Under the pieces are notes generated by a model, which saw only the letters and a program-made list of their open reading frames with translations, had not been told where the DNA came from and did not search any database. A stretch of DNA of 64,000 nt from Cyanobacteriota bacterium. Lineage in GTDB: Bacteria > Cyanobacteriota > Cyanobacteriia > PCC-6307 > Cyanobiaceae. The number at the start of each line of letters is the position of its first letter. Position 1 is the first letter of the stretch. This document shows, piece after piece, positions 9,476 to 26,180 of the stretch. The translations under genes were made by a program, and so were the position numbers. Location: NCBI GenBank assembly GCA_046342315.1, contig JBKDPV010000025.1:1227-65226 (forward strand), in the 5' to 3' direction.

Positions 9476-12265
9476 TTGACCTCCACTCCCGCCGCCACGA
9501 AGGCTCCTCTGACGCCCTGGCACGCGCTGGATCCCCAGGAATGCCGCAGGAGGCTCGAAAGCGGCAGCGAGGGCCTCACCACCGCCCAGGCGGCCGAGCG
9601 GCTGGCCCGTCAGGGCCCCAACCGCCTTGAGCTCGACCCCGGACGTAGCAATCTGCGCATCCTCTGGGACCAGCTCAGCAACGTGATGCTGATCATGCTG
9701 CTGGCGGTGGCGGCGGTGTCGGCGGTGATCGCCCACGTCAACCAGCGCTTCCCCAAGGACGCGATCGCGATCGTGCTGATCGTGGGCCTGAATGCCCTGC
9801 TGGGCTATCTGCAGGAGAGCCAGGCCCAGAAGGCCCTGCAGGCCCTGCGCGAGATGGCGGTGCCCATGGTGCAGGTGCGCCGGGACTCCGAATGGCAGCG
9901 CCTCGACAGCGAGCAGCTCGTTCCCGGCGACCTGATCCGACTGGAGGCGGGCGACCGCGTGCCGGCCGATGCGCGGCTGCTGGAGGTGGCCGAGCTGGGG
10001 GTGCGCGAGGCGGCGCTCACCGGTGAGGCCGAGGCGGTGGCAAAGCGGGCCGACCTCGTGCTGGAGGAGTCCACCCCGGTGCTCGAGCGCAGCAACTGCC
10101 TGTTCCAGGGCACCGAGGTGGCCCGCGGCCGCGGCACCGCGGTGGTGACGGCCACCGGCATGGGCACTGAGCTCGGCCAGATCGCCGGCCTGATCAGCAG
10201 CGCCGGCGGTGAGGCCACGCCGCTGCAGGAACGGCTCGACGGCCTGGCCAACGTGCTGGTGGTGTCCGCCCTGTCGCTCGTGGCGCTGGTGGTGCTGGGC
10301 GGCTGGGCGATGGGCCAGAGCCTGCTCGATCTGCTCGAGGTGGCCCTTTCGATGGCGGTGGCCATCGTTCCCGAGGGCCTGCCGGCGGTGATCACCGTGA
10401 CCCTGGCCATCGGCACCCAGCGGATGGTGAAGCGCGCCGCCCTGATCCGCCGCCTGCCGGCGGTGGAAGCGCTCGGATCGGTCACCGTGATCTGCACCGA
10501 CAAGACCGGCACCCTCACCCAGAACCGCCAGGTCGTGCAGGAACTGCGCTGCGGCACCGAAGCGGTGGCGGTGGGTGGCCATGGCTATGTCCCCACGGGC
10601 AGCTTCACCCCCTCGCCCCTGGCCCCGCCGTCCGGCGCCCGCGCCGGCAGTGTGGCCGGCGCCCGGGAGCTGCTGCTGCAGGCCGGTGTGCTCTGCAGTG
10701 ATGCCGAACTCCGCCGGGACGAGCAGGGCGACTGGGAGGTGCTGGGCGATCCCACCGAGGGGGCCCTCGTGGTGGTGGGGGCCAAGGCCGGCATTGACGG
10801 CTTCGGCCTGCGGGAGCACTACCTGCGTGAGGCGGAGATTCCCTTCAGCTCCGAGCGTCAGCTCATGGCGGTGTGGGTGCGCGACACGGATGGCAAGCTC
10901 CAGGCCCCCCTTGGAACCGTGGCTGAGGGGTCCCGCACCCTGATGATCAGCAAGGGGGCCCCGGAAGTGATCCTCGCCACCTGCGACCGCTGGCTCGATG
11001 GTGCCGGCGTGGTGGGGATGGGCGAGGCCGAGCGCCAGTGGTGGCTCGACCAGGCCCGCGAACTTGCGGCCGGCGGTCTGAGGGTGCTGGCGTTCGCCTG
11101 CGCCCCCCACCATCCCAGCCCCGAGCATGAGCTGGAGCACCAGGTGCTGCTCGGCCTGATGGCCCAGCTGGATCCGGCGCGGCCGGAGGTGCCGCTGGCG
11201 GTGGCCCGCTGCCGTGAGGCCGGTATCCGGCCGGTGATGATCACCGGCGACCATCCCCTCACCGCCCGGGCGATCGGCGCCAGTATCGGCCTGGTGGCCA
11301 CCGATGGCGAAGTGGTGCTCGGCCGGGAACTCGAGCAGCTCGACGATGCCGGGCTTCAGGAGCTGGTGGGGCATTGCAACATCTATGCCCGGGTGGCGCC
11401 CGAGCAGAAGCTGCGGATCGTCAAGGCGCTGCAGGCCCGCAAGGAAGTGGTGGCCATGACCGGCGACGGCGTCAACGACGCACCTGCCCTCAAGCAGGCC
11501 CACATCGGCGTGGCGATGGGCATCACCGGCACCGAGGTGAGCAAGGAGGCCTCCTCCATGGTGCTGCTCGACGACAACTTCGCCACGATCGTGAACGCGG
11601 TGGAGGAGGGAAGGCTCGTGTATGCCAACATCCGCCGCTTCGTGAAGTACATCCTCGGCAGCAATGTCGGTGAGCTGATCACGATCGCCGCCGCCCCTCT
11701 GGTGGGGCTGGTGGGGGTGCCGATGACGCCGCTTCAGATCCTGTGGATGAACCTGGTCACTGATGGCGTGCCGGCCCTGGCCCTGGCCCTCGAGCCCGGG
11801 GAGGAGGGTCTGATGCAGCGCAGACCGGCCCAGCCCGGGGAATCGATCTTCGCCCGCGGCGTGGGCTCCTACATCCTGCGCATCGGCGTGGTGTTCGCCA
11901 TTTTCGTGATCTCCCTGATGGTGTGGGCCTACCGCACCTACGGCCCCGAGGGCCCCTGGCGCACGATCGTGTTCACCACCCTCTGCCTCGCCCAGATGGG
12001 CCATGCGCTCTCGGCCCGCAGCGAGCTGCCCCTGATCCGGGTGGCCCCCTTCTCCAACCCCTGGCTGCTGTGGGCCGTTCTGGTCACCGCCGCGCTCCAG
12101 CTCGTGCTGCTTTACGTGCCTCCGCTGGCCTCCTTCTTCGGCACCGTGCCGCTCTCCGGCCGTGACCTGAGCATCTGTGTGGGGGTGAGCGTGCTGTTCT
12201 TCTTCTATCTGGAGATCGAGAAGCTGGTGCGGCTCAGGCGCCGGCGGGTTTCCGCCGACACCTGA
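9476..12265 (+). CDS. P2A-type cation (Ca2+)-transporting P-type ATPase (PacL-like)
   Basis: DKTGTLT phosphorylation site, TGEA, PEGL, MITGD, GDGVNDAPAL, SNVGE and NLVTD; TTG start at 9476 assumed. The 7595 start in the ORF track is an antisense run-on. Confidence 0.92.
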   Translation: MTSTPAATKAPLTPWHALDPQECRRRLESGSEGLTTAQAAERLARQGPNRLELDPGRSNLRILWDQLSNVMLIMLLAVAAVSAVIAHVNQRFPKDAIAIVLIVGLNALLGYLQESQAQKALQALREMAVPMVQVRRDSEWQRLDSEQLVPGDLIRLEAGDRVPADARLLEVAELGVREAALTGEAEAVAKRADLVLEESTPVLERSNCLFQGTEVARGRGTAVVTATGMGTELGQIAGLISSAGGEATPLQERLDGLANVLVVSALSLVALVVLGGWAMGQSLLDLLEVALSMAVAIVPEGLPAVITVTLAIGTQRMVKRAALIRRLPAVEALGSVTVICTDKTGTLTQNRQVVQELRCGTEAVAVGGHGYVPTGSFTPSPLAPPSGARAGSVAGARELLLQAGVLCSDAELRRDEQGDWEVLGDPTEGALVVVGAKAGIDGFGLREHYLREAEIPFSSERQLMAVWVRDTDGKLQAPLGTVAEGSRTLMISKGAPEVILATCDRWLDGAGVVGMGEAERQWWLDQARELAAGGLRVLAFACAPHHPSPEHELEHQVLLGLMAQLDPARPEVPLAVARCREAGIRPVMITGDHPLTARAIGASIGLVATDGEVVLGRELEQLDDAGLQELVGHCNIYARVAPEQKLRIVKALQARKEVVAMTGDGVNDAPALKQAHIGVAMGITGTEVSKEASSMVLLDDNFATIVNAVEEGRLVYANIRRFVKYILGSNVGELITIAAAPLVGLVGVPMTPLQILWMNLVTDGVPALALALEPGEEGLMQRRPAQPGESIFARGVGSYILRIGVVFAIFVISLMVWAYRTYGPEGPWRTIVFTTLCLAQMGHALSARSELPLIRVAPFSNPWLLWAVLVTAALQLVLLYVPPLASFFGTVPLSGRDLSICVGVSVLFFFYLEIEKLVRLRRRRVSADT

Positions 12266-12288
12266 GCCAGGGCCCTTAGCTTCCAGCC

Positions 12289-12948
12289 TTGGATCTCTCC
12301 CTGATCGCCGACGACTTCACCGCCGCCCTCGAGGCGGCGGTGCGCAGCGACCCCCGCCGGGCCTACCTGCTGATCGCAGGGTTGATGCTGCTCGAGAACC
12401 TGTTTCCGCCCATCCCCTCCGAGATGGTGATGCCCCTGTGTGGATTCCTGATCCACCAGGGGCATCTCTCCTTCGTGCCGGTGATCCTGGCCGGGTTGGT
12501 GGGCACCCTCGCCGGCGCCTGGTTCTGGTATGGCGTGGGTCGGCTGGTGGATGAACGCCGCCTGGAGAGGCTGCTCGCGCGTCACGGCGGCTGGATGGGC
12601 CTGCGCGCCGAGGATCTGGCCGCCAGCCGCCGCTGGTTCTCCCGCCATGGCGGAGCGGTGGTGTTCTGGGGTCGGTTGATCCCGGGCATTCGCCCGTTCG
12701 TCTCCCTGCCGGCGGGCATCGAGCTGATGCCCCAGCCCGCCTTCCTGCTCTGGAGCGGCGCCGGCAGCCTGGTGTGGCTGAGCGCCCTCACCCTTGCCGG
12801 CCAGGGGCTCGGAGCCGGCTGGCGCCATGGGGTGGAGGGCAGTGAGCCCCTCGCCCGTTTCGGCCAGATTCTCGGGGCAGCAGCATTGCTGGCGATGGGC
12901 GTCTGGCTTTGGCGGCGGGCCCGGGGGCGCCGCAGCGGGCGCCGCTGA
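12289..12948 (+). CDS. DedA family membrane protein (second copy)
   Basis: ENLFPPIPSEMV, GAWFWYGVGR and GRLIPGIRPFVSLPAG motifs. Confidence 0.88.
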   Translation: MDLSLIADDFTAALEAAVRSDPRRAYLLIAGLMLLENLFPPIPSEMVMPLCGFLIHQGHLSFVPVILAGLVGTLAGAWFWYGVGRLVDERRLERLLARHGGWMGLRAEDLAASRRWFSRHGGAVVFWGRLIPGIRPFVSLPAGIELMPQPAFLLWSGAGSLVWLSALTLAGQGLGAGWRHGVEGSEPLARFGQILGAAALLAMGVWLWRRARGRRSGRR

Positions 12949-12952
12949 GCCC

Positions 12953-13231
12953 TCATTCGCCCCCGGACTCCTTCTCCTCGCCCAGGCCCGGGCTGGCCTC
13001 CCGCGTGCCAGGCCCGCCATCGATCCGTTCCGTCATCGACCCCAGCACAAACAGCAACGCTCCCCCCAGGGCCAGGAGCCCGAGGAACAGGGCCGCTTGC
13101 CAACTGCGCCGCCTTTCCTCCACCAGCACGGTGGTGTCCAGGGAGCGGCCGCAGTCGGAGCACACGAGTTTCGCTTTGCTGCCGCTCCCCACCTTGGTCA
13201 CCATCCGGCAGCCGCATTTCGGACAGGCCAA
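12953..13231 (-). CDS. Small Zn-ribbon protein with one TM helix
   Basis: CPKC...CSDC pair followed by a hydrophobic segment WQAALFLGLLALGGALLFVLG. Confidence 0.6.
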   Translation of the reverse strand: MACPKCGCRMVTKVGSGSKAKLVCSDCGRSLDTTVLVEERRRSWQAALFLGLLALGGALLFVLGSMTERIDGGPGTREASPGLGEEKESGGE

Positions 13232-13402
13232 GGGCGGCGAAGTCTCGGAATTGCTTCATCTTCGCAGTCCAGCCGGGATCGATAAGCCGTGCTTGGCAGG
13301 CCCATTGGGAGTTCCGCTCCTCTGGCGCCCCCAGGGCCGCTGCCCCCTCTTTAGGGTTCCCCATCAATGGCTCGCCATCCGGCGGCGTCCTCTCCTGCCT
13401 GC

Positions 13403-15283
13403 ATGACCCTCCTTCCCGCCCAGACGGCCTGGCTGGTCCCCCTCTATCCCCTGGTGGCGTCGCTGCTTTCGCTGCTGTGGTCGCCGGGGCTGATCTCGCG
13501 CACGGGGCCCCGGCCCTGCGGCTATCTCAACCTCACCCTGGTGAGCGTGGCGTTCGTGCACAGCGCCTCCGCCCTGATGGCGCTGCACTCCAATTCCGCC
13601 GCCGGTGCCGCCGCCCTCTACAAGCCGCTCACCTTCGGCTGGACCTGGCTGGACACCGCCGGCCTGCGGGTGGGCTTCGATGGCCTGATCACCGAGCCGG
13701 CTCTGATCGCGATGACGGTGATCACCGGCCTGCATGTGCTGGTGCAGATCTATGCGATCGGCTATCTGGAGATGGACTGGGGCTGGCCCCGCTTCTTCGG
13801 CTCGCTGAGCTTCTTCGAGGCCGGCCTCTGCGCCCTGGTGCTCACGGATTCGCTGTTCTTCAGCTACGTGATCCTCGAGCTGCTCACCCTCGGCACCTAC
13901 CTGATCGTGGGCACCTGGTACAACCAGCCGCTGGTGGTGAAGGGGGCGAGGGACGCTTTCCTCACCAAGCGAATCGGCGACCTCATCCTTCTGGCCGGGG
14001 TGATCGCCCTGCTGCCCATCACCGGCACCTGGAATTTCCACGGGCTGCAGGCCTGGGCGGCCGATCAGGTAAACAACGGCAACCCCCTCCCCCAGATTCT
14101 GCCGTTGATCCTGCTGGCCCTGATCGCCGGGCCGATGGGCAAGTGCGCCCAGATCCCCCTGCACCTCTGGCTGGATGAGGCGATGGAGAGCCCTCTGCCC
14201 TCCACCGTGCTGCGCAACTCCGTGGTGGTGGTGGGTGGCGCCTGGGTGCTTCTGCGCCTCGAACCCCTGATCGAGTTGAGCCCGCTGGTGCAGACCGTGC
14301 TGGTGATCGTGGGCGGCACCACGGCTCTGGTGGCCTCTCTGATCGCCCTGGCCCAGATCGATGTGAAACGGGCCCTCTCCTTCCTGGTGAGCAGCTGGCT
14401 CGGCCTGCTGTTCGTGGCGGTGGGTCTGGGCGGCATCAGCGTGGCCGATCACCTGATGCTGGTGTACCCCCTGCCGATGGCGCTCATGCTGATGGTGATC
14501 GGCGCCATCGTGATCACCAACGTCACCCAGGACCTCACCCAGCTGGGTGGCCTCTGGAGCAAGCGACCGCTGATGGGCCTGGCTTTCCTCACCGGCGCCG
14601 CCGGTCTGATGGCCCTGCCTCCGTTCGGTGGTTTCGCCGCCCTGAGCGAGCTCATGGAGCTGACGGCCGAGAGCTCCCATCCCCTGCTGCTCGGCGTCCT
14701 TGTGCTGTTCACCAATGCCCTCATCAGTGCCGGTCTGATCCGGGTGTTCGGCCTGATCTGGGGCGGACGCCCTTCGGTGTTCACCACCCGCTCCCCGGAG
14801 GTGCTGTGGCTGATGGCCCTGCCCACCTTCGTGCTGATGGGCCTGGTGCTGCACATGCCCCAGCTGCTGGTGATCAACGGGGTCTTCGCCCTCTCCCCCC
14901 TGCCGGGGTGGGGCCCGCTGGCGGTTCCCCTGCTGATCTCCACCCTCGTGGGTGGCGGCCTTTCCGCTGTGTTCTATCTCAGGCCCCATCCCCTGGCCCA
15001 CTTGCCGGCAGCTCTCGGCGGCCTCCAGGACTGGCTCGCCCACGATATGCAGACTGAGAGCTTCTACCACCGCACCGTGGTAGGCCTGGTGGTAGGCCTG
15101 GCTCGGCTCAGTGCCTGGATGGATGAGCGTCTGGTCGACGGCTTCAGCAGCGCCACCGGTTCCGTTGCCCTCCAGGGGGCCAGGCGTCTGAGCTTCACCA
15201 CCTCCGGACGCTCCCAGGCCTATGCCCTCACCGTGGTTCTGGGGGTTCTGCTGATGGCCGCCTGGCTGCTCACCGGCTTCTGA
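13403..15283 (+). CDS. ndhF3: NDH-1 subunit F3 (high-affinity CO2 uptake)
   Basis: AWLVPLYPL, EMDWGWPRFF, GKCAQIPLHLWLDEAMESP and GRSQAY; co-oriented with ndhD/cupA/cupS. Confidence 0.9.
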   Translation: MTLLPAQTAWLVPLYPLVASLLSLLWSPGLISRTGPRPCGYLNLTLVSVAFVHSASALMALHSNSAAGAAALYKPLTFGWTWLDTAGLRVGFDGLITEPALIAMTVITGLHVLVQIYAIGYLEMDWGWPRFFGSLSFFEAGLCALVLTDSLFFSYVILELLTLGTYLIVGTWYNQPLVVKGARDAFLTKRIGDLILLAGVIALLPITGTWNFHGLQAWAADQVNNGNPLPQILPLILLALIAGPMGKCAQIPLHLWLDEAMESPLPSTVLRNSVVVVGGAWVLLRLEPLIELSPLVQTVLVIVGGTTALVASLIALAQIDVKRALSFLVSSWLGLLFVAVGLGGISVADHLMLVYPLPMALMLMVIGAIVITNVTQDLTQLGGLWSKRPLMGLAFLTGAAGLMALPPFGGFAALSELMELTAESSHPLLLGVLVLFTNALISAGLIRVFGLIWGGRPSVFTTRSPEVLWLMALPTFVLMGLVLHMPQLLVINGVFALSPLPGWGPLAVPLLISTLVGGGLSAVFYLRPHPLAHLPAALGGLQDWLAHDMQTESFYHRTVVGLVVGLARLSAWMDERLVDGFSSATGSVALQGARRLSFTTSGRSQAYALTVVLGVLLMAAWLLTGF

Positions 15284-15344
15284 ACCTCTTCCGCGAGCTT
15301 GCAGCCGCACCAACCAGGATCTAAGCGAAAGCGACGGTTACCAG

Positions 15345-15370
15345 ACCGTTTCCCCACGCGGGGAAGCGGT
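15345..15370 (+). other. 11-bp stem-loop ACCGTTTCCCC-ACGC-GGGGAAGCGGT downstream of ndhF3
   Basis: Pairing read directly (one G-U pair, 4-nt loop); no U-tract follows, so function is unassigned. Confidence 0.5.
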
Positions 15371-16898
15371 GGGCTCCTTCACAGAGCTACCCTGGCAGGC
15401 ATGGCAGAAAGGGTTGTTGACCGGCTTGGCTCCCCATACCCGCAATAAAAATTCGTTGACCCCTGGCCGGCTCGCGCACGGCTTGTGGAGCAGGCTTCAA
15501 CGGCTTCTCAAACTCATTCTGCGGCCGGAAACCGTTCTTTGGCTTCTGCTTGCGGCTCTGCTTTTATTGCCGCTGGTAATGATCCGTGCCATCTCCAACG
15601 CCACCTTGGCCCAGATGAAGATGCATGCGGAGGAAGTTTCCACTCTTGCTACCGATATCCGCTCCTACTATGCAGACAACGTGATTGCGCGGCTTCAGGC
15701 TGCCGATGGCAAGGCTGTGTATTCCGAGAACTATCGTGATGTGCATGGAGGTATCCCGATTCCGGCCACTCTGTCGATTGAGCTTGGAGCCCTGTTCGAT
15801 AATGCCCACAGTGATGGACGTATCTCCTATGAATTTATCTCCGACTATCCTTTCGCCAAGAGGGTTCTTCGTTCTTTGGATGATTTTGAGGTGAATGCAA
15901 TACGTGCATTCCGTGATGATCCCAGCCGCACAACCTTCACCGAGCTTTCCGGCAATGGGTTAGGTCGATCCTCCTACCGTCTGGCTACACCGGTGATCAT
16001 GCGGCAAGCCTGTGTCACCTGCCACAACGCCCATCCTGATTCGCCCAAGCGCGATTGGAAGGTGGGTGACATCCGTGGCATTCAGGAGGTTACGGTCAGG
16101 GGTTTGCTCGTGAACAGCTTCGGCAACCTCAATGGTCTTTTTGGTTACGTTTCCTTGCTCGGCGTTCTGTCGGTCGTTTCCGCAGGTGTCTTTCAGCGTC
16201 AGAGCCGTAATCTCCGGACCATCAATAGAAAGCTGGAGAGCGTGCATGAGCGCGAGTCAGATCTTGCTGCCCGAATGAGCGACCAGCTACAGGAGCTCTC
16301 GCTTTTCGGCACTGCTGTGGACAACTCGATCGTCGGCATCGCGATTGCTGATATGCGCAAGCCAGATGCTCCGCTTGTTTATGTCAATGATGCCTTCACC
16401 AGAATCACCGGTTACACGAAGCAGTTGGCGATTGGCTTCAACTGCCGCTTTCTTCAGGGGCCCGATACGGATCCGGCCGAGGTGTTGCGTATCCGCCAGG
16501 CCTTGGAGCAGGGCCAGTTCTACAGCGGCGAGCTGATCAACTATCGTCACGACGGCAGTCGCTTCTGGAATCGCCTGACCCTCTCACCCGTGGGCGGAAG
16601 TGGCGGCAAGCCCGATTTTTTCGTGGCTAACCAGGTGGACATCACCCATCTCAAGGTTGAACGAGGTGTGCCCGTTCGGGAGCTCACCAACCTGGAAAAC
16701 GATGTTGATTCAGCTCAGGAGGCTCTCGCCAACGCACGACGCTTCGCTGAGGCCCTTCAACAGAATCTCCAGAACAGCGGTCAGTGCGCGGTGGAGCATG
16801 AGGCTTTTCTGCTCTCCGAACAAAAAGCGCACCAAGACCTGGCCGAGAGGCTCTCCCGAATCTCTGGGCTGATTCAGCGCTACATCAGCAATTCGTGA
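15369..16898 (+). CDS. Membrane sensor: TM - DUF3365/Tll0287-like c-heme domain - TM - LOV domain - coiled coil (start may be TTG at 15483)
   Basis: CVTCH at 16011-16025 within a DUF3365-like context (FISDYPF...HPDSPKRDWKVGDIRG); LOV signature GFNCRFLQGPDTD at about 16434-16472 with INY, FWN and ANQ; two hydrophobic helices flank the heme domain. Confidence 0.85.
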   Translation: MGSFTELPWQAWQKGLLTGLAPHTRNKNSLTPGRLAHGLWSRLQRLLKLILRPETVLWLLLAALLLLPLVMIRAISNATLAQMKMHAEEVSTLATDIRSYYADNVIARLQAADGKAVYSENYRDVHGGIPIPATLSIELGALFDNAHSDGRISYEFISDYPFAKRVLRSLDDFEVNAIRAFRDDPSRTTFTELSGNGLGRSSYRLATPVIMRQACVTCHNAHPDSPKRDWKVGDIRGIQEVTVRGLLVNSFGNLNGLFGYVSLLGVLSVVSAGVFQRQSRNLRTINRKLESVHERESDLAARMSDQLQELSLFGTAVDNSIVGIAIADMRKPDAPLVYVNDAFTRITGYTKQLAIGFNCRFLQGPDTDPAEVLRIRQALEQGQFYSGELINYRHDGSRFWNRLTLSPVGGSGGKPDFFVANQVDITHLKVERGVPVRELTNLENDVDSAQEALANARRFAEALQQNLQNSGQCAVEHEAFLLSEQKAHQDLAERLSRISGLIQRYISNS

Positions 16899-18130
16899 TG
16901 GTGCCGCCCCCTTCATTGAGGCAGTCTCCAAGACTTCTGAGGCGGTTGCTCTTCAGCTACTGGCTGGGTTGCAGTTTATTGCTTGCTGTTGGTTTAGCTC
17001 TGTTTGATCTCTGGGAGCACCAGAGGCAGATCGTGAAGGAAGGTGAGCAAGCCGCCCAGGTTGTCAGTGCCAGTTTGCGGACGAATCTCACCAATCAGCA
17101 ACGTCAGCAGTTGCTTCAGGCCTATGGCCAGATGTATCAAGCCGAGCGATTCGATCGGATGAATCTGTTGCTGGTGGTTGATCTTACCGGACAGGTTGTC
17201 TACACCTCGCAGCCAGCATGGCGCTCTCTGCTGATCAGTGATCCCCTGTTTTACAAGCTCGCTCTCAACGATTTCGACTTTGGTAACGTTGTCGAGTGTT
17301 TTCGCGACAGGCCTAAAGAATGCATGGAGATCAGAAGTTTGAACTGGCATCTCCCTCTTTCCGGAATCACGGTGGTGCGCCCTGTTTCGATGCCTGCATT
17401 GGATCTTGGCTTGCCGCGCCGGCCGTTCCTGGTGCTCGTTAACTTTGATTCCGGCACGATGATCAGTGACTTGCTGCAGGATTTACCCGTTTTAATTGTG
17501 TGGGTGTGTCTGGTGTCTTCCTTGCTTGTGCTGGCCCTATGGTTTTGCGCTACCCGCCAATTTCTGCCCCAGTTGATCGCGGCTAGCCAGACCGATTCCC
17601 TTACCCAGCTGATCAACCGCACGTCATTCATGGAGAAGGCTGTCGATGTTCTTGCCGAGGCAGAAGAGCGGCGTGCCGAATTTGTGTTTGCCATCCTCGA
17701 TATCGACCACTTCAAGCGGATTAATGATACCTACGGTCACGGTTGTGGCGATGCAGCCCTTGCTGCGGTGGGCGCCTTGCTGCTTGCCGTTACCAGGCCT
17801 GACGACCTGGTGTGCCGCATGGGTGGTGAGGAATTTGCTCTGCTGCTTTCGATGCCCCGCCTGGGAGGAGCCAAGGCTTTGGAGCGGCTGCGCCTACAGC
17901 TTGAGATGAATCGCATCCTCTACAGTGGTCAGCAAGTTCCCCTTACCGCAAGCATAGGAGCTGCAGCTACTTCTGACTGCGGCTACAACATCGACTTTCT
18001 CTATAACGCAGCTGACAAGGCCCTCTACGTAGCCAAGAATGCCGGCCGTAACCTTGTTCAGTGGAATGATGGAGAGCTGATGAGCCGCCTGTCCATTTCA
18101 GATGCACCCTCTGCTGCAACGAGCAACTGA
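16895..18130 (+). CDS. Membrane-anchored diguanylate cyclase (GGDEF)
   Basis: DSLTQLINR, LDIDHFKRINDTYGHGCGD, RPDD I-site and GGEEF (17822-17836), KNAGRN; two TM helices flank an extracytoplasmic domain. Confidence 0.9.
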   Translation: MMVPPPSLRQSPRLLRRLLFSYWLGCSLLLAVGLALFDLWEHQRQIVKEGEQAAQVVSASLRTNLTNQQRQQLLQAYGQMYQAERFDRMNLLLVVDLTGQVVYTSQPAWRSLLISDPLFYKLALNDFDFGNVVECFRDRPKECMEIRSLNWHLPLSGITVVRPVSMPALDLGLPRRPFLVLVNFDSGTMISDLLQDLPVLIVWVCLVSSLLVLALWFCATRQFLPQLIAASQTDSLTQLINRTSFMEKAVDVLAEAEERRAEFVFAILDIDHFKRINDTYGHGCGDAALAAVGALLLAVTRPDDLVCRMGGEEFALLLSMPRLGGAKALERLRLQLEMNRILYSGQQVPLTASIGAAATSDCGYNIDFLYNAADKALYVAKNAGRNLVQWNDGELMSRLSISDAPSAATSN

Positions 18131-18134
18131 TTCG

Positions 18135-20087
18135 ATGCAACCTCCCAGGATTCCCGATGATGAGGCGGCCAGATTGCTCGAACTGCGCAGCTATAGTGTT
18201 CTTGATACTGATCAGGATCCAAGATTTGATGACATCAGCGAACTGACCCGTTATATCGCCGGCACAGAAATCGGTATTGTGAGTTTGGTAGACAGCAACC
18301 GGCAGTGGTTCAAGAGTTGTGTGGGGGCGCCGTTAGGTCAGCAGCAAACTGCGCGAGATATTTCCTTCTGCGGCCACACCATCTTGCAGCGTCAGCCCCT
18401 GATCATCAATGATGCCCTTGAAGATGAGCGATTTGCTGATAATCCTCTCGTTCTCGGCTCGCCCCATGTGCGTTTCTATGCCGGCTTCCCCCTGATCACT
18501 CCTAATGGCTTCACAGTGGGCAGTCTTTGCGCGATCAGCCGTCAGCCGCATCAGCTGAATCACCAGCAGATTGATGCTCTTGGCCGAATGGCTTTGCTCA
18601 CTGTTCAGCAATTGGAGTATCTGCGTAATTCTGCTTTTCTATCTGCCAGTGAAAGTGGGCTTGCGGTGGAACGGCTTCGCGGCCTTGCCAGCGAGCGAAT
18701 GACCTCGCTAGGACGTCTGATCAATCGCGATCAGCTGGTGCGGATGATGGATCTGATGTTTGGTATGGAGCTTGGATCCTCCTTCTCATTGTTGCGCTGC
18801 TCCTTCCGTGACTATGAACGGGTCAATTCCAGCCTGGGCGGACTTGTGGCAGAAGAGTATATGAATGAGGCGGCCCGAAGGGTGTTGGCTGCCATCCCTC
18901 GCTCCGCTTCGGTGGCACGCTTTGCTGATGCTGAATTCGTGGTGCTTCTGCCCTTTTCGGCGGCGGAGAGGGATGCGCAAAAGGTGGCAGAGCGTATCCT
19001 TTCTTTTGCTAATCATTTCTATCGGTGTGGTAGCGAAACGCTGTCGATGGCGCTTTCCATTGGTGTTGCAATCCATCATCATAACTATGATAATGCTGAA
19101 GCGATTCTAGCTGATACCAGTATTGCGGTACGCATGGCGCGCCGATCGAGTGCAAGTGCAGTTCGCTTCATCGATGCTGAGTCGCGCGTTGCCGCCCGCG
19201 AAAACTACCGCCTGGAATCGGAGATCCGCGAAGCTGTGGCCGAGAAGGTGATGGAGCCTTTCCTGCAGCCGATCGTGAATCTCACTAGCGGCGAGCCGAT
19301 TGGGTTTGAATCCCTTGCGCGCTGGCCCCGACATGGCGGCATCGCGGGGCCTGGCGTCTTTCTTCCGCTTGCAACGGAGTGTGGGATTACTGGTGATCTC
19401 GATCTCCTCATCATCGAGAAGACCCTGGCGGCGATGCCGCTGCTCGCTCGGCCCGTGCCGCAACGGCCGATGATGATCAGTATGAATCTCTCCGGACTTC
19501 TTTTGGAGGATGAGGAGATGCGCAGGCGCCTGCTTTCTCTGATCGACGACAACCCCTGTCCCCCGGGCTGGCAGTTGCAGCTGGAGTTGGTGGAGGACGT
19601 CTTCCGGGATTCCAGCAGCGACTTCAGCCTCTTTCTCGATGCGCTGGCGAGCCGCGAGGTGCGCATTGCGATTGACGACTTCGGCACGGGCTACTCCTCC
19701 CTGGCCCGCCTGATCTCCCTGCCGATTCAGGCGGTGAAGGTGGATCGGGCTTTTGTGGCCAAACTCGATGGTGGCGAGGGGTCTCCGCAAACGTTGCTGC
19801 GCACCATGTTCACGATGCTGGCGGATCTCGGGCTGGAGATCACGGCAGAGGGTGTGGAAACCCAGGAGCAGCGCGAGTGGTTGCTTGCCAATGGCGCCCA
19901 CAAGGCACAGGGATATCTGTTCGCCCAACCGATGTCGCTCAGCGACGCGATTGCCTACCTGCAGAATCTGAATTACCGGCCCAGGGCGATCCCGGTGGAG
20001 CCAGCCCGCATCCAGGCCTTACGGCGACGTCGACTGCGCTCCGTGTTTCGCCTGCCCTTTCAGGGCGGTCGTCGCAGCACCGACTGA
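18135..20087 (+). CDS. GAF - degenerate GGDEF - EAL c-di-GMP phosphodiesterase
   Basis: GAF (SFCGHTI, VRFYAGFPL); GGDEF motif degenerate (ARFADAEF); EAL domain with FLQP, GFESLARW, IDDFGTGYSSL, KVDRAFV, AEGVET and QGYLFAQP. Confidence 0.88.
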   Translation: MQPPRIPDDEAARLLELRSYSVLDTDQDPRFDDISELTRYIAGTEIGIVSLVDSNRQWFKSCVGAPLGQQQTARDISFCGHTILQRQPLIINDALEDERFADNPLVLGSPHVRFYAGFPLITPNGFTVGSLCAISRQPHQLNHQQIDALGRMALLTVQQLEYLRNSAFLSASESGLAVERLRGLASERMTSLGRLINRDQLVRMMDLMFGMELGSSFSLLRCSFRDYERVNSSLGGLVAEEYMNEAARRVLAAIPRSASVARFADAEFVVLLPFSAAERDAQKVAERILSFANHFYRCGSETLSMALSIGVAIHHHNYDNAEAILADTSIAVRMARRSSASAVRFIDAESRVAARENYRLESEIREAVAEKVMEPFLQPIVNLTSGEPIGFESLARWPRHGGIAGPGVFLPLATECGITGDLDLLIIEKTLAAMPLLARPVPQRPMMISMNLSGLLLEDEEMRRRLLSLIDDNPCPPGWQLQLELVEDVFRDSSSDFSLFLDALASREVRIAIDDFGTGYSSLARLISLPIQAVKVDRAFVAKLDGGEGSPQTLLRTMFTMLADLGLEITAEGVETQEQREWLLANGAHKAQGYLFAQPMSLSDAIAYLQNLNYRPRAIPVEPARIQALRRRRLRSVFRLPFQGGRRSTD

Positions 20088-20295
20088 GCCGGCAGCGCCG
20101 ACGCTGAAGCTGCCGTGCCCAGGTCGCTCCCATCCCCCGGTCGGACAGCGACCGATCAGTGATTCTTTCCGGCACGATCGCAACTGCCTTTGTGCCAAGG
20201 CCGTCAGCAGACACAGACATCCAGTAGCTTCCCGCGAATGCCGGCGCTCCGTCGGCTCCTGATCGCTTCGGCCGGCTGGCCGGCTCCATGCGCTG

Positions 20296-21816
20296 ATGCC
20301 CTCCTTTGTCCTGGTCCTGCTGCTGCTGCTCCCGCTGATGGGCATGGGGCTCATCCAGCTGGTGCCCGCCGATCGTCTGCGCTGGGTGCAACCGCTGGCA
20401 GCCTCCAGCGCTGCTGTGCCCCTGCTGCTGGCCCTGGGCTGCTGGCGCCTGCCTCCTGCTGAGCTCCACGTGAACTGGCTACCGAAGCTCGGACTCCGCC
20501 TCGACCTCGGTCTGGATGGTCTCTCCCTGCCGCTCGTTGTGCTCACGGCACTGATCTCGGTGCTCGCCATCCTCTCGGCACCGGCGGATCAGAGCCGCCC
20601 GCGGTTGTTCTTCGCCCTGATGCTTGCCACCAACCTCGGCGTGGTGGGCGGATTCCTGGCCCGCAACGCCCTGCTGTTCCTGCTGGCTTTCGAGTTGGTG
20701 CTGATCCCGATCACCCTGCTGGTGGCCATCTGGGGCGGGGAAAAGCGGGCGGGTGCCGCCGTGCGCTTCCTGCTCTACAGCGCCGTTTCCGGCCTGGCGC
20801 TGTTGGCGGCCGTCCTCGCCTTCGCCTGGTTCAACCCCGCCGGTCCAGCCTTCGGGTTTGATGATCTCCACAAGGCCCAGATCCCGCCTGTGGCCCAGCG
20901 CTGGATCCTGGCTCTCCTGCTGCTCGCCTTCGGCCTGAAGCTGCCGGTCGTGCCCCTGCACGGCTGGCAACCCTTCACCTACAGCCAGGCACCCACCCCG
21001 GTCGTGATGCTTCTGGCCGGCGCCGTCTCCAAGCTGGGGGCCTACGGCCTGCTGCGCTTCGGGGTGGGCTTCCTGCCGGATGTCTGGGCTGTCTGGTCAC
21101 CGTGGATCGCCGCCGCCGGCGCCATCAGTGCGGTGTACGGCGCCCTCAACGCCATCGCCGAGAGCGATATCCGTCGCCTCATGGCCTTCAGCTCCCTTGG
21201 GCACATGGGACTGCTGGTGCTCGGGCTGTCTGCCGCCACCCCTCTGAGCCTGCAGGGGGCGGTGGCCCAGATGCTGGCCCACGGCATGATTGTGGCCCTG
21301 TTGTTCGCCTGCGTGGGGCTGATCGAACGCAAAACCGGCACCACCGCCATCCCGGAGCTCTCTGGCCTGCTGAACCCGTTGCGGGGCTTGCCGTTCACCA
21401 TGGGCATGCTGCTGCTGGCTCTGATGGCCGCAGCCGGGATTCCAGGTCTGGCGGGTTTCCCGGCCGAGCTGATGGTGTTCGAGGGCAGCTGGTCCACGTT
21501 CCCGAGAGCCACCTTGGTGAGCTTGATCGCCTCGGGCTTCACCGCTGTCTATGCCATCCGCCTGTTCAACCGGGTGGGCTTCGGCCGCCTGGACAACGAC
21601 CGTGCCGACTGGGTGTCCACCGGATGGAGCGAGCGGGCGCCGGCCATGGCTCTCACCCTGCTGGTGATCGCAGCGGGCCTCTGGCCCACGGCCCTCACCG
21701 GCTGGAGTGAGGCGGAATCCACGGGTCTGGCCCTGCGCTCCCAGCCCTTCCTGAGCCGGTCCACCGACCTCGTCGCCGCCGCCTTCCCTGCCGCCTCGGA
21801 GCTGAGCATCTCATGA
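20296..21816 (+). CDS. ndhD3: NDH-1 subunit D3 (CO2 uptake)
   Basis: LGLDGLSLPL, FELVLIP, KLPVVPLHGWQP, KLGAYGLLRF and GFPAE NdhD/NuoM motifs; ATGA overlap with cupA. Confidence 0.88.
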   Translation: MPSFVLVLLLLLPLMGMGLIQLVPADRLRWVQPLAASSAAVPLLLALGCWRLPPAELHVNWLPKLGLRLDLGLDGLSLPLVVLTALISVLAILSAPADQSRPRLFFALMLATNLGVVGGFLARNALLFLLAFELVLIPITLLVAIWGGEKRAGAAVRFLLYSAVSGLALLAAVLAFAWFNPAGPAFGFDDLHKAQIPPVAQRWILALLLLAFGLKLPVVPLHGWQPFTYSQAPTPVVMLLAGAVSKLGAYGLLRFGVGFLPDVWAVWSPWIAAAGAISAVYGALNAIAESDIRRLMAFSSLGHMGLLVLGLSAATPLSLQGAVAQMLAHGMIVALLFACVGLIERKTGTTAIPELSGLLNPLRGLPFTMGMLLLALMAAAGIPGLAGFPAELMVFEGSWSTFPRATLVSLIASGFTAVYAIRLFNRVGFGRLDNDRADWVSTGWSERAPAMALTLLVIAAGLWPTALTGWSEAESTGLALRSQPFLSRSTDLVAAAFPAASELSIS

Positions 21817-23123
21817 CCCCACCCACCGCCACGGCCCCCGAGACCGTCACCGCTCCCCTGATCCCGCCCTCCACCCATCGCTACGCCGATGTGATCCACC
21901 GGCTCGAGGCCGGCGGCTCGATGCTGCCGGACACGCCGGAGAACCTGATGCAGATCATCGGCATCTACAAGGCCTATGCCGTGCCGATGGACTTCTACTG
22001 GCGCGATCTGCTCTACATCGCCGAGCAGGTGTTCCTCGATCCCCTGCCGGCCTTCAAGTACTTCATCAGCCAGGAGTACCTCGATCTGCCCAATTCCTAC
22101 GCCGGCGATCAGTCGAAGCTGCGGATCTGGCGCGGTGGCGAGAAGGCCCACCCCGAACTGCTGGAGTTCATGGCCAAGGGGGAGTCGGGCAGGATGCCGA
22201 AGCTGCTCCATCACCTCTGGCACGACCGGATCAACATGGAGTTCGCCGAGGCCTGCATGGAGGCGATGCTCTGGCACCAGGGCATGGGCGGGCGCTTCTA
22301 CGACTATCTCGATTGCGACGCCTATCGCACCAACGCGGACCGGGCGATCAAGGCCTACTTCCGCGGCAATCCGCTGATGCTCGGCCTGTACAAGCTGTTC
22401 CCTGAGATGTTCATGGAGCAGGTGAAGAAGATGAGCTACTACGCCAACCTCGGCCTGTTCTGGGAGGTGATGGCACCGGTGTTCTTCGAGATGAGTGACA
22501 TCTACGACGAGGGAGGGTTCAAGGGTGTTCCCGACGCCATGAACTTCCTGGTGAACGGCATCTTCGCCGTAGCGGGCCGGCCGATCTACCACCACGTGTA
22601 CATCAAGGGGGAGTGTTTCGAGATCATCCCCAAGAGCGAAGGTTTCACCTGGCTCTACGAAGCGGCCCTGCCCTATGTGGAGGCCGTGTTCTACCGCACG
22701 GCACCCTTCCGCGGCACCAAGAGCTACAACGCCCAGGCCTACCAGGTGCCCTCCGATCAGGCCGATTTCCACTACGGCATCCTCTATGCCGACGTGTTCC
22801 CGGTGGGGTCGGCCGGCATCCCTCCCACCCTGCTGATGCAGGACATGCTGCACTTCCTCCCCCCCTATCTGGAGGATCTCTACAAACAGCACAAGCGTGG
22901 CGATGAGGACAAGCTCATCCAGCTGGGCATCACCTTCCAGCGCTCGATGTACAACGTCACCTCGGCGGTGATCCAGGCCCTGCGCTGCGCCCTGCTCTAT
23001 CCGCTCGATGACACCGATCCCGAGCACCTGATGGCGAACCGCCGCTTCTTCGAGGCCCAGATGGACCGCTTCCTGCGGCCGGAAGCCCGTCTGCCCCAGG
23101 TCCAGACCCAGGACTACCGCTGA
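21813..23123 (+). CDS. cupA: CO2 hydration protein CupA (ChpY)
   Basis: IHRLEAGGSMLPDTPENLMQIIGIYKAYAVPMDFYWRDLLYIAE; 436 aa, matching CupA rather than the shorter CupB. Confidence 0.92.
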   Translation: MTPPTATAPETVTAPLIPPSTHRYADVIHRLEAGGSMLPDTPENLMQIIGIYKAYAVPMDFYWRDLLYIAEQVFLDPLPAFKYFISQEYLDLPNSYAGDQSKLRIWRGGEKAHPELLEFMAKGESGRMPKLLHHLWHDRINMEFAEACMEAMLWHQGMGGRFYDYLDCDAYRTNADRAIKAYFRGNPLMLGLYKLFPEMFMEQVKKMSYYANLGLFWEVMAPVFFEMSDIYDEGGFKGVPDAMNFLVNGIFAVAGRPIYHHVYIKGECFEIIPKSEGFTWLYEAALPYVEAVFYRTAPFRGTKSYNAQAYQVPSDQADFHYGILYADVFPVGSAGIPPTLLMQDMLHFLPPYLEDLYKQHKRGDEDKLIQLGITFQRSMYNVTSAVIQALRCALLYPLDDTDPEHLMANRRFFEAQMDRFLRPEARLPQVQTQDYR

Positions 23124-23145
23124 TCCCGCCCCTCACCCCAACGCC

Positions 23146-23547
23146 ATGGCCAACATCATCGAAACCGCGAAGGGAGCGGGCTGCTTCGCCACCCTGCTCA
23201 CCGCCGTGGAGGTGGCGGGGCTCACCGGAGCCCTCGAGAGCCCAGGTCCCTTCACCGTCTTCGCTCCCGTCGACGACGCCTTCGCGGCCCTGCCTCCAGG
23301 CACGGTCCAGACCCTGGTGGACAACCCGCCCCAGCTGGCCAGGATCCTCAAGTTCCACGTGCTTGCCGGAGCCCACCACCGCAGCGAGCTGGTGACCCGG
23401 CCGGAGTGGCAGAGCCTGGAGGGCGCGCCTGTGGCCATCCGGCGAGCCGATCCCTTCGAGGTGAAGAACGCCACCGTGGTGAGCGCCGACATCGCTTGCG
23501 ACAACGGCGTGGTGCATGTGATCGACCGGGTGATCCTGCCCGGCTGA
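23146..23547 (+). CDS. cupS: Fasciclin-domain protein CupS
   Basis: FAS1 motifs GPFTVFAPVDDAF and NGVVHVIDRVILP; canonical position after cupA. Confidence 0.85.
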   Translation: MANIIETAKGAGCFATLLTAVEVAGLTGALESPGPFTVFAPVDDAFAALPPGTVQTLVDNPPQLARILKFHVLAGAHHRSELVTRPEWQSLEGAPVAIRRADPFEVKNATVVSADIACDNGVVHVIDRVILPG

Positions 23548-23639
23548 GCGAAGCCTGATCCGAGCGCAGCTGTCGCAGCCCCTATGACAGCATCATCGCC
23601 GCGGTCGCCGCCAGCGATGATCGGGACCTACCGGGAACC

Positions 23640-26180
23640 ATGAAGTTGCAGGCCGCTCGCCGACACAGCATCCTGGCCATCTTCGGAGCCCTGACGCTGG
23701 CAGGGTTGGTCGGTATCGCCCTGATCAGCTATCTGCGGGCCCGCAATTTCCTGCACCGACAGATCAGCGAAACCACACTGCCGCTCACCTCCGACACGAT
23801 CTATGCCGGGGTGGAGAACGATCTGCTCCAGCCGGTCCTCGCCTCCGGCCTGATGGCTCGCAACACCCTGCTGGCCGAAAAGCTGGCCCGCGGCCAGAGC
23901 GATCCCGAAAGGATCGCGGCCTACCTGCGCGGCGTCCAGGAGCGCACCGGGGCGGTCACGGCGTTTCTGGTGTCCGACCGCAGCCGCAGCTACCACCACC
24001 CGAGCGGCGTTCTCAAGCAGGTCTCACCTACCGATCCCCAGGATCGCTGGTACTACCGCTTCCGCGACTCCGGGCGCAATTTCGAGATCAACATCGACCG
24101 TGACACGGCCGACCTCCAGCGCACCACAGCCTTCATCAACGTGCGGTTGCTCGATACCGAGGGCGGCTTCCTCGGGGTTGTGGGCCTGGGTCTCGACATG
24201 CGCTCGCTCATGGCCCAGCTGCAGCGCTACCAAGAGCGCTACGGCGGCCGCATCCTGCTGCTGGACCAGCAGGGGCGGATCAAGCTGGCCGCCGACCGCA
24301 CGACCGGCAGCCTGGAGGACATCAAGGGCCTGGCCCCGCATCGAAAGCAGATCCTCTCGGCCCCTTCCCATACTCTGCATCTCGAGCGCACGGGGAGCGA
24401 CTCCTACGTCAGCAGTCGCCGCATCCCCGAACTGGACTGGCTGCTGGTGGTGCAGCAGTCGAGCAGCCTCGCCCAGCGCAGACTGGAAAATCTGCTGGCC
24501 CAGAATCTGATCGCCGCGGTGCTGGTCAGCCTGGTGCTGCTGTCCCTCGCCCAGCTCACGGTGGGCAGGCAGCAGCGTGAGCTGGAGCGACTGGCCAGCA
24601 CCGACAGCCTCACGGGCCTGCTCAACCGTTCCGCCTTCGAGCCCCTGTTCCTACGCCAGGTCGCTGAGGCCCGAAACCGCCGCGAACCCCTGGCGGTGGC
24701 TCTGATCGACATCGATCGCTTCAAGCAGGTGAATGATCACTTCGGCCATCCCCAGGGCGATCATGTGATCTGTCAGGTGGGCCGCCGGATCGTGCACCAC
24801 ATCCGCGTTGTTGATCTGCTCTTCCGTTGGGGCGGCGAGGAATTCCTGCTGCTCCTGCCGGGCTGTGCCATCCCCCGCGCCAAGGAGCTGCTCGAGAGGA
24901 TCCGCAGGGATCTGCACGATCAGCCCGTGTCCCTGCTCCACCAGAAAACGGTGCCACCATCCTCCGACCAGCTCCGGCCTGATCTGCTGCCGGTGACCAT
25001 CAGCATCGGTCTGAGTGTGCACCGATCAGAAGAATCCAGTGCCGAGCTGCTGCAACGGGTCGATGAGGCCCTCTACTGCGCCAAGCGCGGCGGGCGCAAC
25101 CGCCTCTGCACCGCCACGGCTCCGCTTCGCTGCATCGGCAGGCTGCTGGCGGCCCTTGGCGTTGGTCTGCTGGCGGTGGGTTGCCGTCCCGAGGCGGACG
25201 GAGTGCAGAGCTCCACGATGGGCAGGATTCGCGAGCGTGACCGCCTGATCTGCGCCGTGGACGGGGCTGTGCCGGGGTTCAGCAGCGTTGCCGCCTCCGG
25301 TCGCTATGAGGGGATCGATGTCGACTTCTGCCGGGCCGTCGCGGCGGCGCTGCTGGGCGATCCCGAGAAGGTCGACTTCCGCCCCGTCACCCCAGCCGAG
25401 CGGTTCGTCGCTCTCAACAGCGGCGAGGTGGATCTGCTCTCGATCAGCTCCACCCACACCCTCTCCCGCGATGCGCCGGGCGGGAATGCGCTGAGCTTCG
25501 GGCCCACCTTCTTCTATGACGGCCAGGGGGTGATGGTGCCGGCCGTCTCCGCCGTGCGTCGCCTGGCCGACCTGGCGGGCAAGCCGATCTGCGTGGAGAG
25601 CGGCACCAACACCGAGCTCAACCTGGCCGACCGCATGCGCGAACTGGGGCTCAGCTACCAGCCCCTGCGTTTCCAGTCGGGGGAGCAGGCCTACCCGGCC
25701 TACGAGCAGGGCCGCTGCGCGGCAATCACCAGCGACCGTTCGCTGCTGGCGGGCAAGCGCACCGGCTTCCGCAACCCCGCCGCCCACGTGCTGCTGCCGG
25801 AGTTGCTGAGCAAGGAACCCAGCGCCAAGGTCACGGTGCAGGGTGATCCGGTGTGGGCCGATGCGATCCGCTGGATCACCTTTGCCCTGTTCCAGGCCGA
25901 GGAGAGCGGCCTCACCCGGGCCACGGTCGCCGCGCGAGTGGCAGAGGCCCGGGCCCGGCCGGAGCAGGCGGAGTTGCGCCGGCTGCTGGGGGTGGAGGGG
26001 GATCTGGGCCGCCAGCTGGGGCTGCCCGACGACTTCGTGGTGCGGGTGGTGAAGGCCGTGGGCTCCTACGGCGAGCTGTTCGACCGCCACGTGGGCCCCG
26101 CCTCGCGGCTGGGCCTGGAGCGGGGCCCCAATCGCCTCTGGAACCAGGGCGGGCTCCACTTCCCGCCCCCCTTCCGCTGA
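23640..26180 (+). CDS. Cache-type sensor diguanylate cyclase fused in frame to an amino-acid ABC substrate-binding domain
   Basis: TM, extracytoplasmic domain (DRWYYRF, FLGVVGLG), TM, GGDEF (TDSLTGLLNR, DIDRFKQVNDHFGHPQGD, RVVD, GGEEF at 24831-24845, KRGGRN), hydrophobic LLAALGVGLLAVGC (25143-25184), then a full AapJ/NatF-like domain ending PPFR. Confidence 0.8.
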   Translation: MKLQAARRHSILAIFGALTLAGLVGIALISYLRARNFLHRQISETTLPLTSDTIYAGVENDLLQPVLASGLMARNTLLAEKLARGQSDPERIAAYLRGVQERTGAVTAFLVSDRSRSYHHPSGVLKQVSPTDPQDRWYYRFRDSGRNFEINIDRDTADLQRTTAFINVRLLDTEGGFLGVVGLGLDMRSLMAQLQRYQERYGGRILLLDQQGRIKLAADRTTGSLEDIKGLAPHRKQILSAPSHTLHLERTGSDSYVSSRRIPELDWLLVVQQSSSLAQRRLENLLAQNLIAAVLVSLVLLSLAQLTVGRQQRELERLASTDSLTGLLNRSAFEPLFLRQVAEARNRREPLAVALIDIDRFKQVNDHFGHPQGDHVICQVGRRIVHHIRVVDLLFRWGGEEFLLLLPGCAIPRAKELLERIRRDLHDQPVSLLHQKTVPPSSDQLRPDLLPVTISIGLSVHRSEESSAELLQRVDEALYCAKRGGRNRLCTATAPLRCIGRLLAALGVGLLAVGCRPEADGVQSSTMGRIRERDRLICAVDGAVPGFSSVAASGRYEGIDVDFCRAVAAALLGDPEKVDFRPVTPAERFVALNSGEVDLLSISSTHTLSRDAPGGNALSFGPTFFYDGQGVMVPAVSAVRRLADLAGKPICVESGTNTELNLADRMRELGLSYQPLRFQSGEQAYPAYEQGRCAAITSDRSLLAGKRTGFRNPAAHVLLPELLSKEPSAKVTVQGDPVWADAIRWITFALFQAEESGLTRATVAARVAEARARPEQAELRRLLGVEGDLGRQLGLPDDFVVRVVKAVGSYGELFDRHVGPASRLGLERGPNRLWNQGGLHFPPPFR

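Follow-up and report, generated by a model that had tools for sequence, protein, structure and literature searches.

Light-gated signalling through cyclic di-GMP (c-di-GMP) is known in cyanobacteria from SesA/SesB/SesC of Thermosynechococcus, Cph2 of Synechocystis and the LOV-GGDEF-EAL protein SL2 of Synechococcus elongatus. In Tll0287, the haem-c PAS-like protein of Thermosynechococcus, the haem has His/Cys axial ligation. The present work concerns a stretch of 64,000 nucleotides (the window) on contig C25 of the freshwater Cyanobium genome G000, a draft of 3.1 Mb in 131 contigs. Here the operon of the high-affinity CO2-uptake complex NDH-1MS, ndhF3-ndhD3-cupA-cupS, is divided by three genes, named c1, c2 and c3, which together form a predicted c-di-GMP signalling module. 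We consider it likely that this is a conserved module embedded in the NDH-1MS operon, with the origin, the read-through at low inorganic carbon (Ci) and the c-di-GMP output that are proposed below.

The second messengers described so far for the cyanobacterial CO2-concentrating mechanism are cAMP and c-di-AMP, which act through SbtB and SyCRP1, and a 2026 review mentions c-di-GMP only indirectly (PMC13249358). In the literature we found no paper tying c-di-GMP enzymes to the ndhF3 operon, and none with a split ndhF3/ndhD3 or with a haem-LOV sensor of the c1 type.

A three-gene cassette between ndhF3 and ndhD3

The locus comprises the following features (positions in the window, strand):

13278..13380, +: P, promoter/operator-like block of ndhF3, kept upstream of ndhF3 in 21 genomes of the genus
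13367..15283, +: ndhF3, NDH-1MS subunit (TIGR01960, 683.9 bits, cut-off 588.7; NF005633, 727.7 bits, cut-off 676)
15271..20421, +: segment specific to G000, made up of the cassette, both spacers and the replaced 5' end of ndhD3 (blastn breakpoints, sliding identity)
15369..16898, +: c1, putative sensor (PF11845, 69.9 bits, cut-off 24.1; PAS_9, 73.7 bits)
15386..15395, +: -10-like element (TAnnnT) GCTACCCTGG, candidate cassette promoter (alignment upstream of c1)
16895..18130, +: c2, predicted diguanylate cyclase (PF00990, 139 bits; motifs)
18102..20087, +: c3, predicted c-di-GMP phosphodiesterase (PF00563, 182 bits; GAF, 52 bits; GGDEF, 53 bits)
20148..20241, +: P', promoter/operator-like block before ndhD3, kept in 8 of 8 slot genomes
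20237..20296, +: remnant of the former ndhF3 3' tail (GCTGATG junction kept; peptide PS(A/V)PD...R and stop)
20296..21816, +: ndhD3 (Proton_antipo_M and NuoM-type families)
21813..23123, +: cupA/chpY, CO2-hydration protein (PF10216, 530 bits; TIGR01964, 740 bits, cut-off 293.7)
23146..23547, +: cupS, fasciclin fold (matches to 6TJV chain Q and 2MXA)

The coordinates of the open reading frames (ORFs) confirm that three + strand genes separate ndhF3 from ndhD3, and the gap of 5.0 kb between the two is present in G000 and in seven other genomes. The mean GC is about 0.56 in the cassette and 0.68 in the flanks; in 500-nt windows it amounts to 0.52-0.58 over 15500-19250, climbs to 0.62-0.64 close to the 3' end of c3 and reaches 0.64-0.74 on both sides. 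The original prediction, made from the sequence before any database search, had described a split by three co-oriented genes of lower GC, and both the coordinates and the windowed GC agree with it. Among the operon genes, ndhF3 may in fact start at ATG 13404, the family alignment beginning at residue 18. The product of 20296-21816 passes the cut-offs of general NuoM/NdhD families only (TIGR01972, 405.7 bits, cut-off 263.8), the equivalog models remaining below theirs, and it is called ndhD3 because of its synteny with cupA. CupS residues 1-133 match 6TJV chain Q and 2MXA ('NDH-1 complex sensory subunit CupS') over the full length with an E of about 2e-43.

That ndhF3 and ndhD3 are normally contiguous, as had been assumed, was borne out in 17 of the 18 same-genus relatives first examined. 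At the empty sites of the genus the ndhF3 stop overlaps the ndhD3 start in the motif GCTGATG, the exception being the group of G002, G023 and G017. The breakpoints of the segment were determined by blastn against the empty-site relatives G059, G022, G021, G024, G020 and G014. Compared with G059 (Cyanobium sp. FGCU52), one of the two closest relatives of G000 by rpoB, identity is about 90% up to 15270 and again from 20422, and the 5151 bp between them (15271-20421) replace 177 bp. The replaced segment slightly exceeds the interval 15284-20295 that separates the two ndh genes, since a new ndhF3 C-terminus and ~126 nt at the start of ndhD3 are part of it. NdhF3 of G000 ends with ...AAWLLTGF, as opposed to ...AAWLLASAPSVPSELVRPFR in the intact form, and is ~14 residues shorter (20 genomes compared). 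The tail remnant before ndhD3 reads ...GAPSAPDRFGRLAGSMR, and its frame closes at TGA 20294-20296, overlapping the ndhD3 ATG; the PS(A/V)PD...R remnant of G000, G064 and G058 resembles the tails of intact NdhF3 proteins (e.g., ASAPPVPADLLRPLR). The first ~300 nt of ndhD3 (to about 20590) have 45-78% identity to the clade of G000 itself vs. 83-90% to G064 (Cyanobium sp. CZS25K), and this 5' end belongs to the incoming allele.

At the cassette boundaries we found neither a target-site duplication nor a terminal inverted repeat nor a mobility gene, and repeats there do not go beyond chance. Thus the boundary repeat search and the domain scan uphold what had been stated from the sequence on this point. 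The segment holds three signalling genes only and its site lies within coding sequence, which is not what is expected of a mobile element or island. An Rfam scan of 12900-23700 for riboswitches and other RNAs returned two sub-threshold chance matches only, both inside coding regions.

The c1 protein consists of a transmembrane (TM) helix, a Tll0287-like c-type haem domain on the extracytoplasmic side, a second TM helix, a LOV domain on the cytoplasmic side and a coiled coil, and no output domain was detected by family and motif analysis of the protein. The haem domain carries CVTCH at residue 215 and the LOV part carries GFNCRFLQG with the adduct-type Cys359; both CxxCH and NCRFL turned out to be invariant across eight diverse c1 homologs. 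LOV-kinase and YtvA models cover the LOV part only, with scores under their cut-offs. Having the motif GxNCRFLQ and the adduct Cys, this part is a predicted photoreceptor domain. In the haem domain of the same homologs there is no invariant Cys besides those of CxxCH, and for this reason the His/Cys ligation of the Tll0287 type is probably not retained; the invariant candidate ligands are His126, His147, His222, Met83 and Met211. The haem domain is also the only part of c1 with relatives beyond picocyanobacteria, and these are mainly alphaproteobacterial sensors.

The start of c2 overlaps the stop of c1 (GTGA). The c2 protein has a TM helix, an extracytoplasmic alpha/beta domain (about residues 67-185, with two invariant Cys), another TM helix and a GGDEF domain with the active site GGEEF at residue 310 and the I-site RPDD five residues upstream. 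Its AlphaFold model has a mean pLDDT of 80.5. In a fold search the GGDEF domain matches DosC, PleD and others; these matches dominate the result, and the search gave no identity for the extracytoplasmic domain. c3 overlaps c2 by 29 nt and encodes, in this order, GAF, a degenerate GGDEF (ADAEF) and EAL, the latter with ESL at 403, DDFGTG at 525 and EGVE at 583. It is from these intact motifs that c2 is predicted to be a cyclase and c3 a phosphodiesterase. The dN/dS of the cassette genes is 0.10-0.26 (c1 about 0.10, c3 0.13-0.14), similar to that of the ndh genes, and all three are under purifying selection.

Occurrence and movement of the module

A scan of 125 species-level genomes of Cyanobium revealed c1 homologs in 21, with c2 and c3 always next in line. 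In eight of the 125 (G000, G001, G049, G058, G064, G069, G078 and G137) the module occupies the slot between ndhF3 and ndhD3. All eight have a common insertion point inside the last ~14 codons of ndhF3, and the junction sequences are homologous between slot genomes. In G137 (locus L065) the 3' end of ndhF3 is broken by a run of N at ~130 nt ahead of c1, so that its left junction is not comparable. The premise that c-di-GMP enzymes are sparse in picocyanobacteria fits marine lineages only, as G000 has 26 GGDEF-domain hits genome-wide and such enzymes are absent only in Prochlorococcus and some marine Synechococcus (PMC4284465).

In a wider set of 36 module-bearing loci of freshwater picocyanobacteria, half touch the NDH-1MS operon, and they do so in three arrangements. 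The module lies in the slot at 8 of the 36 loci, upstream of ndhF3 on the same strand at 7 (Vulcanococcus limneticus, Synechococcus sp. GreenBA-s and several Prochlorococcaceae metagenome-assembled genomes (MAGs)) and directly after cupS at 3 (L088, G059 and L109). At the remaining loci it is found in other surroundings, of at least four kinds, and two of these correspond to empty sites in G000. The gap between c3 and ndhF3 is ~70 nt at L086, and c1 begins right after cupS at L088; such close spacing looks like co-transcription. At L091 a methyltransferase-like ORF lies in the gap between the module and ndhF3. Strand and proximity to the operon are kept through three gene orders, even if these go back to a single ancient linkage, and the module belongs to the gene pool of freshwater picocyanobacteria as a resident set of genes under selection.

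Two side observations concern this set. At L085 (Vulcanococcus limneticus; 12575-13555, - strand) an ORF with a BMC domain, which is carboxysome-shell-like, lies between the module and ndhF3 and is a further neighbour of the module related to carbon fixation. L098 and L112 come from MAGs labelled Bradyrhizobium ivorense and Chitinophaga pinensis, with the module on picocyanobacterial contigs; L098 also has ndhF3-ndhD3 at 84-87% identity. These labels are probably due to binning contamination or mislabelling.

In the combined cassette tree the slot clade (100/100) is nested (89/95) in a clade otherwise composed of upstream-type cassettes plus one relocated copy, and the after-cupS cassettes form a separate clade (100/99). 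Because branching in the backbone of this tree is not resolved, one to three independent associations with the operon fit the data. The slot cassettes are also monophyletic with SH-aLRT of 98 for c1 and 97 for c3; being one clade, they point to a single insertion. On the cupA, ndhF3 and rpoB trees, the slot genomes are scattered among empty-site genomes, which requires at least four changes; for instance, the slot genome G078 is sister to the empty-site genome G009. The cassette and ndhD3 of G000 are sister to those of G064 (SH-aLRT 98 for ndhD3), whereas ndhF3 and cupA of G064 sit in an empty-site clade (G016, G005, G006 and G015). G064 is apparently recombinant from about 350 nt before the ndhF3 end to about 200 nt into cupA. 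Between G000 and its rpoB sister G058, dS is 1.6-1.7 for the cassette and 0.32 for cupA; the former is far above the latter, which points to replacement of the slot allele. The scatter of the slot genomes and the conflict between flank and cassette trees indicate that the allele moves between Cyanobium species by homologous recombination, with the ndh genes used as arms.

The turnover can be followed among close relatives. The RpoB proteins of G000, G058 and G059 are 99% identical (rpoB nucleotides about 97% for G000 vs. G059). At the locus the first has slot allele A and the second slot allele B, and the third combines an empty slot with a module from another clade after cupS. Three states among genomes with near-identical RpoB mean that turnover at the site is very fast.

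These data also bear on two simpler accounts of the split operon. A chimeric join in a metagenome-assembled genome might be suspected, as G000 is a fragmented draft, but gene order and junctions are the same in eight independent assemblies, including G049 (single contig, 3.67 Mb) and G058 (cultured isolate Cyanobium sp. FGCU6). Misassembly is thereby excluded, and we consider its probability negligible. A recent acquisition by G000 of a foreign low-GC cassette from outside picocyanobacteria would agree with the contrast in GC to the flanks and with the alphaproteobacterial affinity of the nearest non-picocyanobacterial relatives of the c1 haem domain (35-45% identity). It is at odds with the presence of full-length c1-c2-c3, with a deep internal phylogeny, in the 36 picocyanobacterial loci, with the 84% protein identity of c1 and c3 of G000 to the copy of another Cyanobium, and with a site that is the same as in seven other genomes at the nucleotide level. 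Moreover, the GC of the cassette is below that of the local flanks by 0.01 to 0.12 in all 20 genomes examined, in any context, so that low GC is a property of the module and not a sign of recent arrival in G000. We therefore regard such an import as very improbable. Of the idea of a horizontally acquired cassette, the lateral movement and the lower GC stand; the one-off foreign import does not, given the 36 loci, the eight slot species and the recombination within the genus.

Transcription and a possible link to carbon supply

Block P has the pattern GAT.A..N..CTTG..N..CAT.GG.A.TTCC ... TAGGGT, with the -10-like hexamer at about 13352-13357. Block P' reads CGATCAGTG..CTT..CACGATCG..ACTGCC ... 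43 nt ... TAGCTT. The spacer between c3 and ndhD3 varies from 113 to 445 nt, and the ~95-nt P' block is common to all eight slot genomes, the rest being not conserved. A profile of the ndhF3-upstream region (21 genomes) matches P' in G069, G001, G049 and G078 with E of 0.05-0.24, and these are its best non-training hits in about 3.7 Mb. A leave-out profile built of the ndhD3-upstream blocks of six other genomes finds P' of G000 at E 2e-11, and the second-best hit of the ndhD3-upstream profile in the G000 genome is P at 13278-13380 (E 3.5e-4). The two blocks are collinear over about 100 positions: GAT.AG, CTTG, AT.GGGA.TTCC, 43 nt and a TAG..T hexamer. A profile search did not detect P' beside non-slot cassettes. 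The suggestion that ndhD3-cupA-cupS could have its own promoter within 20088-20295 is supported by this conserved promoter-like block.

A third weak profile match was considered as a sign of a wider regulon and rejected, since it precedes a bicupin-like gene and no recognisable carbon-uptake gene. It lies on contig C17 (55068-55116; E of 0.076 and 3.6 with the two promoter profiles). The gene that follows after about 75 nt is truncated where the contig ends, and its paralog on C50 encodes a bicupin (Cupin_2).

The spacer between ndhF3 and c1 is short and not conserved, and no strong terminator was found in it or in the c3-ndhD3 spacer. Consensus promoter and terminator scans gave counts not above shuffles and, at the junctions, only a weak hairpin at 20139-20157; the folding of 20075-20180 is not significant (z = -1.4). 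The motif GCTA(A/C/G)CCT(G/T)G is aligned upstream of c1 in the slot genomes G000, G064, G049, G137 and G058 and in the non-slot genome G095, and a looser version, GCTAGTGTGA, is present in G001. This -10-like element at 15386-15395 appears to travel with the cassette and is a candidate promoter, a role inferred from the alignment only. Because of it, c1 probably starts at the in-frame TTG 15456. The cassette may be transcribed by read-through from the ndhF3 promoter or from a promoter of its own.

We propose the following scheme. The slot allele would have arisen when an upstream-type fragment, namely the cassette together with the ndhF3 promoter and first codons, entered the 3' end of ndhF3 in an intact operon; the P' block and the nesting on the cassette tree suggest such an origin. 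The inserted fragment would bring along a promoter that keeps ndhD3-cupA-cupS expressed. The ndhF3 promoter would read through the short terminator-free spacer into the cassette, possibly besides the -10 element of the latter, and low Ci would raise the level of a cyclase/phosphodiesterase pair gated by blue light and redox. c1 may respond to blue light as well as to extracytoplasmic redox or to a ligand of the haem. As it has no output domain, it must act on partners, and the simplest candidates are its two neighbours in the cassette, the membrane cyclase c2 and the phosphodiesterase c3 with its GAF and EAL domains, which would set the c-di-GMP level. The position in or beside the low-Ci operon would make the abundance of the module depend on carbon supply, and the c-di-GMP output could tune how the cells aggregate, move or behave at surfaces, or else tune the CO2-uptake complex. 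We infer in this way the partnership of c1, c2 and c3, the Ci dependence and the downstream target.

Several points weigh against this scheme. When P and P' of G000 are aligned directly with each other, the result is not better than for shuffles, so that their likeness is one of shared architecture at the profile level and a recent duplication is not claimed. The link between the two blocks rests on profile E values of 3.5e-4 and 0.05-0.24. The P' profile fits the ndhF3 promoters of upstream-type genomes no better than others, and for want of such a special affinity the proposed origin of P' is not demonstrated. The three arrangements may all derive from one ancient linkage that was later rearranged locally, not from independent associations. 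Finally, linkage to the operon is not obligatory, as half of the module copies lie elsewhere.

How much the module has to do with carbon uptake can be viewed in two ways. It may be functionally tied to NDH-1MS and co-expressed with it under carbon limitation, with c-di-GMP controlling aggregation, sinking or surface behaviour or NDH-1MS itself. We put this forward as a tentative idea; if true, it explains why the gene sets are kept together through three orders and why a promoter copy was retained upon insertion, and the location of the module beside or inside the same operon in three arrangements is a new hint in its support. Alternatively, the module could be a neutral passenger at a recombination-prone locus, with a Ci-independent promoter of its own and a P' block that merely repaired the polar effect, in which case there would be no functional coupling. 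The copies in at least four other contexts speak for this, as do the variation of the region downstream of cupS between close relatives, the candidate -10 element borne by the cassette and the frequent gain, loss or replacement of the slot allele; a partly horizontal origin has also been proposed for the high-affinity CO2 system of freshwater alpha-cyanobacteria itself (PMC9477826). On the other hand, strand and immediate proximity to the operon are kept through three arrangements in several genera, and the spacing at L086 and L088 looks like that of co-transcribed genes. Besides, the slot allele persists in eight species with its genes intact and under purifying selection. The passenger account thus seems to us rather unlikely, though it deserves to be taken seriously.

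Neighbouring genes and comparison with known systems

Directly downstream of cupS (23640-26180, + strand) lies an ORF of 846 aa in which dCache and GGDEF are joined to a complete SBP_bac_3 solute-binding domain. At the same position the match in Cyanobium sp. FGCU6 is confined to dCache-GGDEF (residues 1-492), and that in CZS25K to two SBP-like genes; the fusion may be lineage-specific. Upstream of ndhF3, a minus-strand ORF of 271 aa (12205-13020) was rejected as a gene, being a high-GC artefact with no family match. The genes in this part of the window are:

12289-12948, +: DedA/VTT protein, the real gene in the region of the artefact ORF
12956-13231, -: small protein of 92 aa with a zinc ribbon and a TM segment, TTG start, divergent from ndhF3 and unannotated; its position is conserved in several Cyanobium genomes
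7595-12265, +: ORF of 1556 aa, a P-type (Ca2+-type) ATPase only from about residue 640 on

The N-terminal 640 residues of the last ORF have no family match, which may mean that the ORF was called too long in GC-rich DNA or that the protein is unusually extended.

The neighbourhood of a LOV/haem c-di-GMP module and NDH-1MS, conserved and resistant to rearrangement, provides a concrete hypothesis for a link between carbon uptake and c-di-GMP in hosts that are globally abundant freshwater alpha-picocyanobacteria. Cultured isolates are at hand for all three orders: Cyanobium sp. FGCU6 for the slot, FGCU52 for the position after cupS, and Vulcanococcus limneticus LL or Synechococcus sp. GreenBA-s for the position upstream of ndhF3. 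The locus is also a clean natural example of how an operon can survive being interrupted, apparently thanks to a promoter copy on the insert, and of a split-operon allele that spreads between species by homologous recombination.

Compared with the low-CO2-inducible NDH-1MS (NDH-1(3)) operon of Synechocystis PCC 6803 and Thermosynechococcus (6TJV), the locus agrees in all four genes and in their order and orientation. CupS and CupA have matches in the solved complex or in curated families, and in the empty-site relatives ndhF3 and ndhD3 are adjacent, mostly with overlapping codons. In contrast, ndhF3 is separated from ndhD3 here by 5.15 kb, which contain three signalling genes and a second promoter-like block; NdhF3 has a shortened tail, and ndhD3 a replaced 5' end.

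With SesA/SesB/SesC, Cph2 and SL2 the module shares the combination of a photoreceptor with GGDEF and EAL domains, an opposing cyclase/phosphodiesterase set and an expected output in aggregation or motility. It differs in that the LOV domain resides on a separate membrane protein, which lacks an output domain and also bears an extracytoplasmic c-type haem domain. In addition, cyclase and phosphodiesterase are each encoded by a gene of their own, and the whole set lies within an operon for carbon uptake. As for Tll0287, the N-terminal domain of c1 scores above the gathering threshold of PF11845 and has CxxCH, but c1 is membrane-anchored and fused to LOV, and the characteristic haem ligation is probably not kept.

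Like the flexible-gene cassettes of picocyanobacterial genomic islands, for which homologous recombination in conserved flanks is the route of exchange, the slot allele is patchy in distribution among close relatives, lower in GC than the host and devoid of mobility genes, and it undergoes allele replacement with breakpoints in conserved flanking genes. Unlike them, it sits inside an operon and within coding sequence rather than at a tRNA or island boundary, and the incoming segment carries a promoter-like block that may be able to restore downstream expression.

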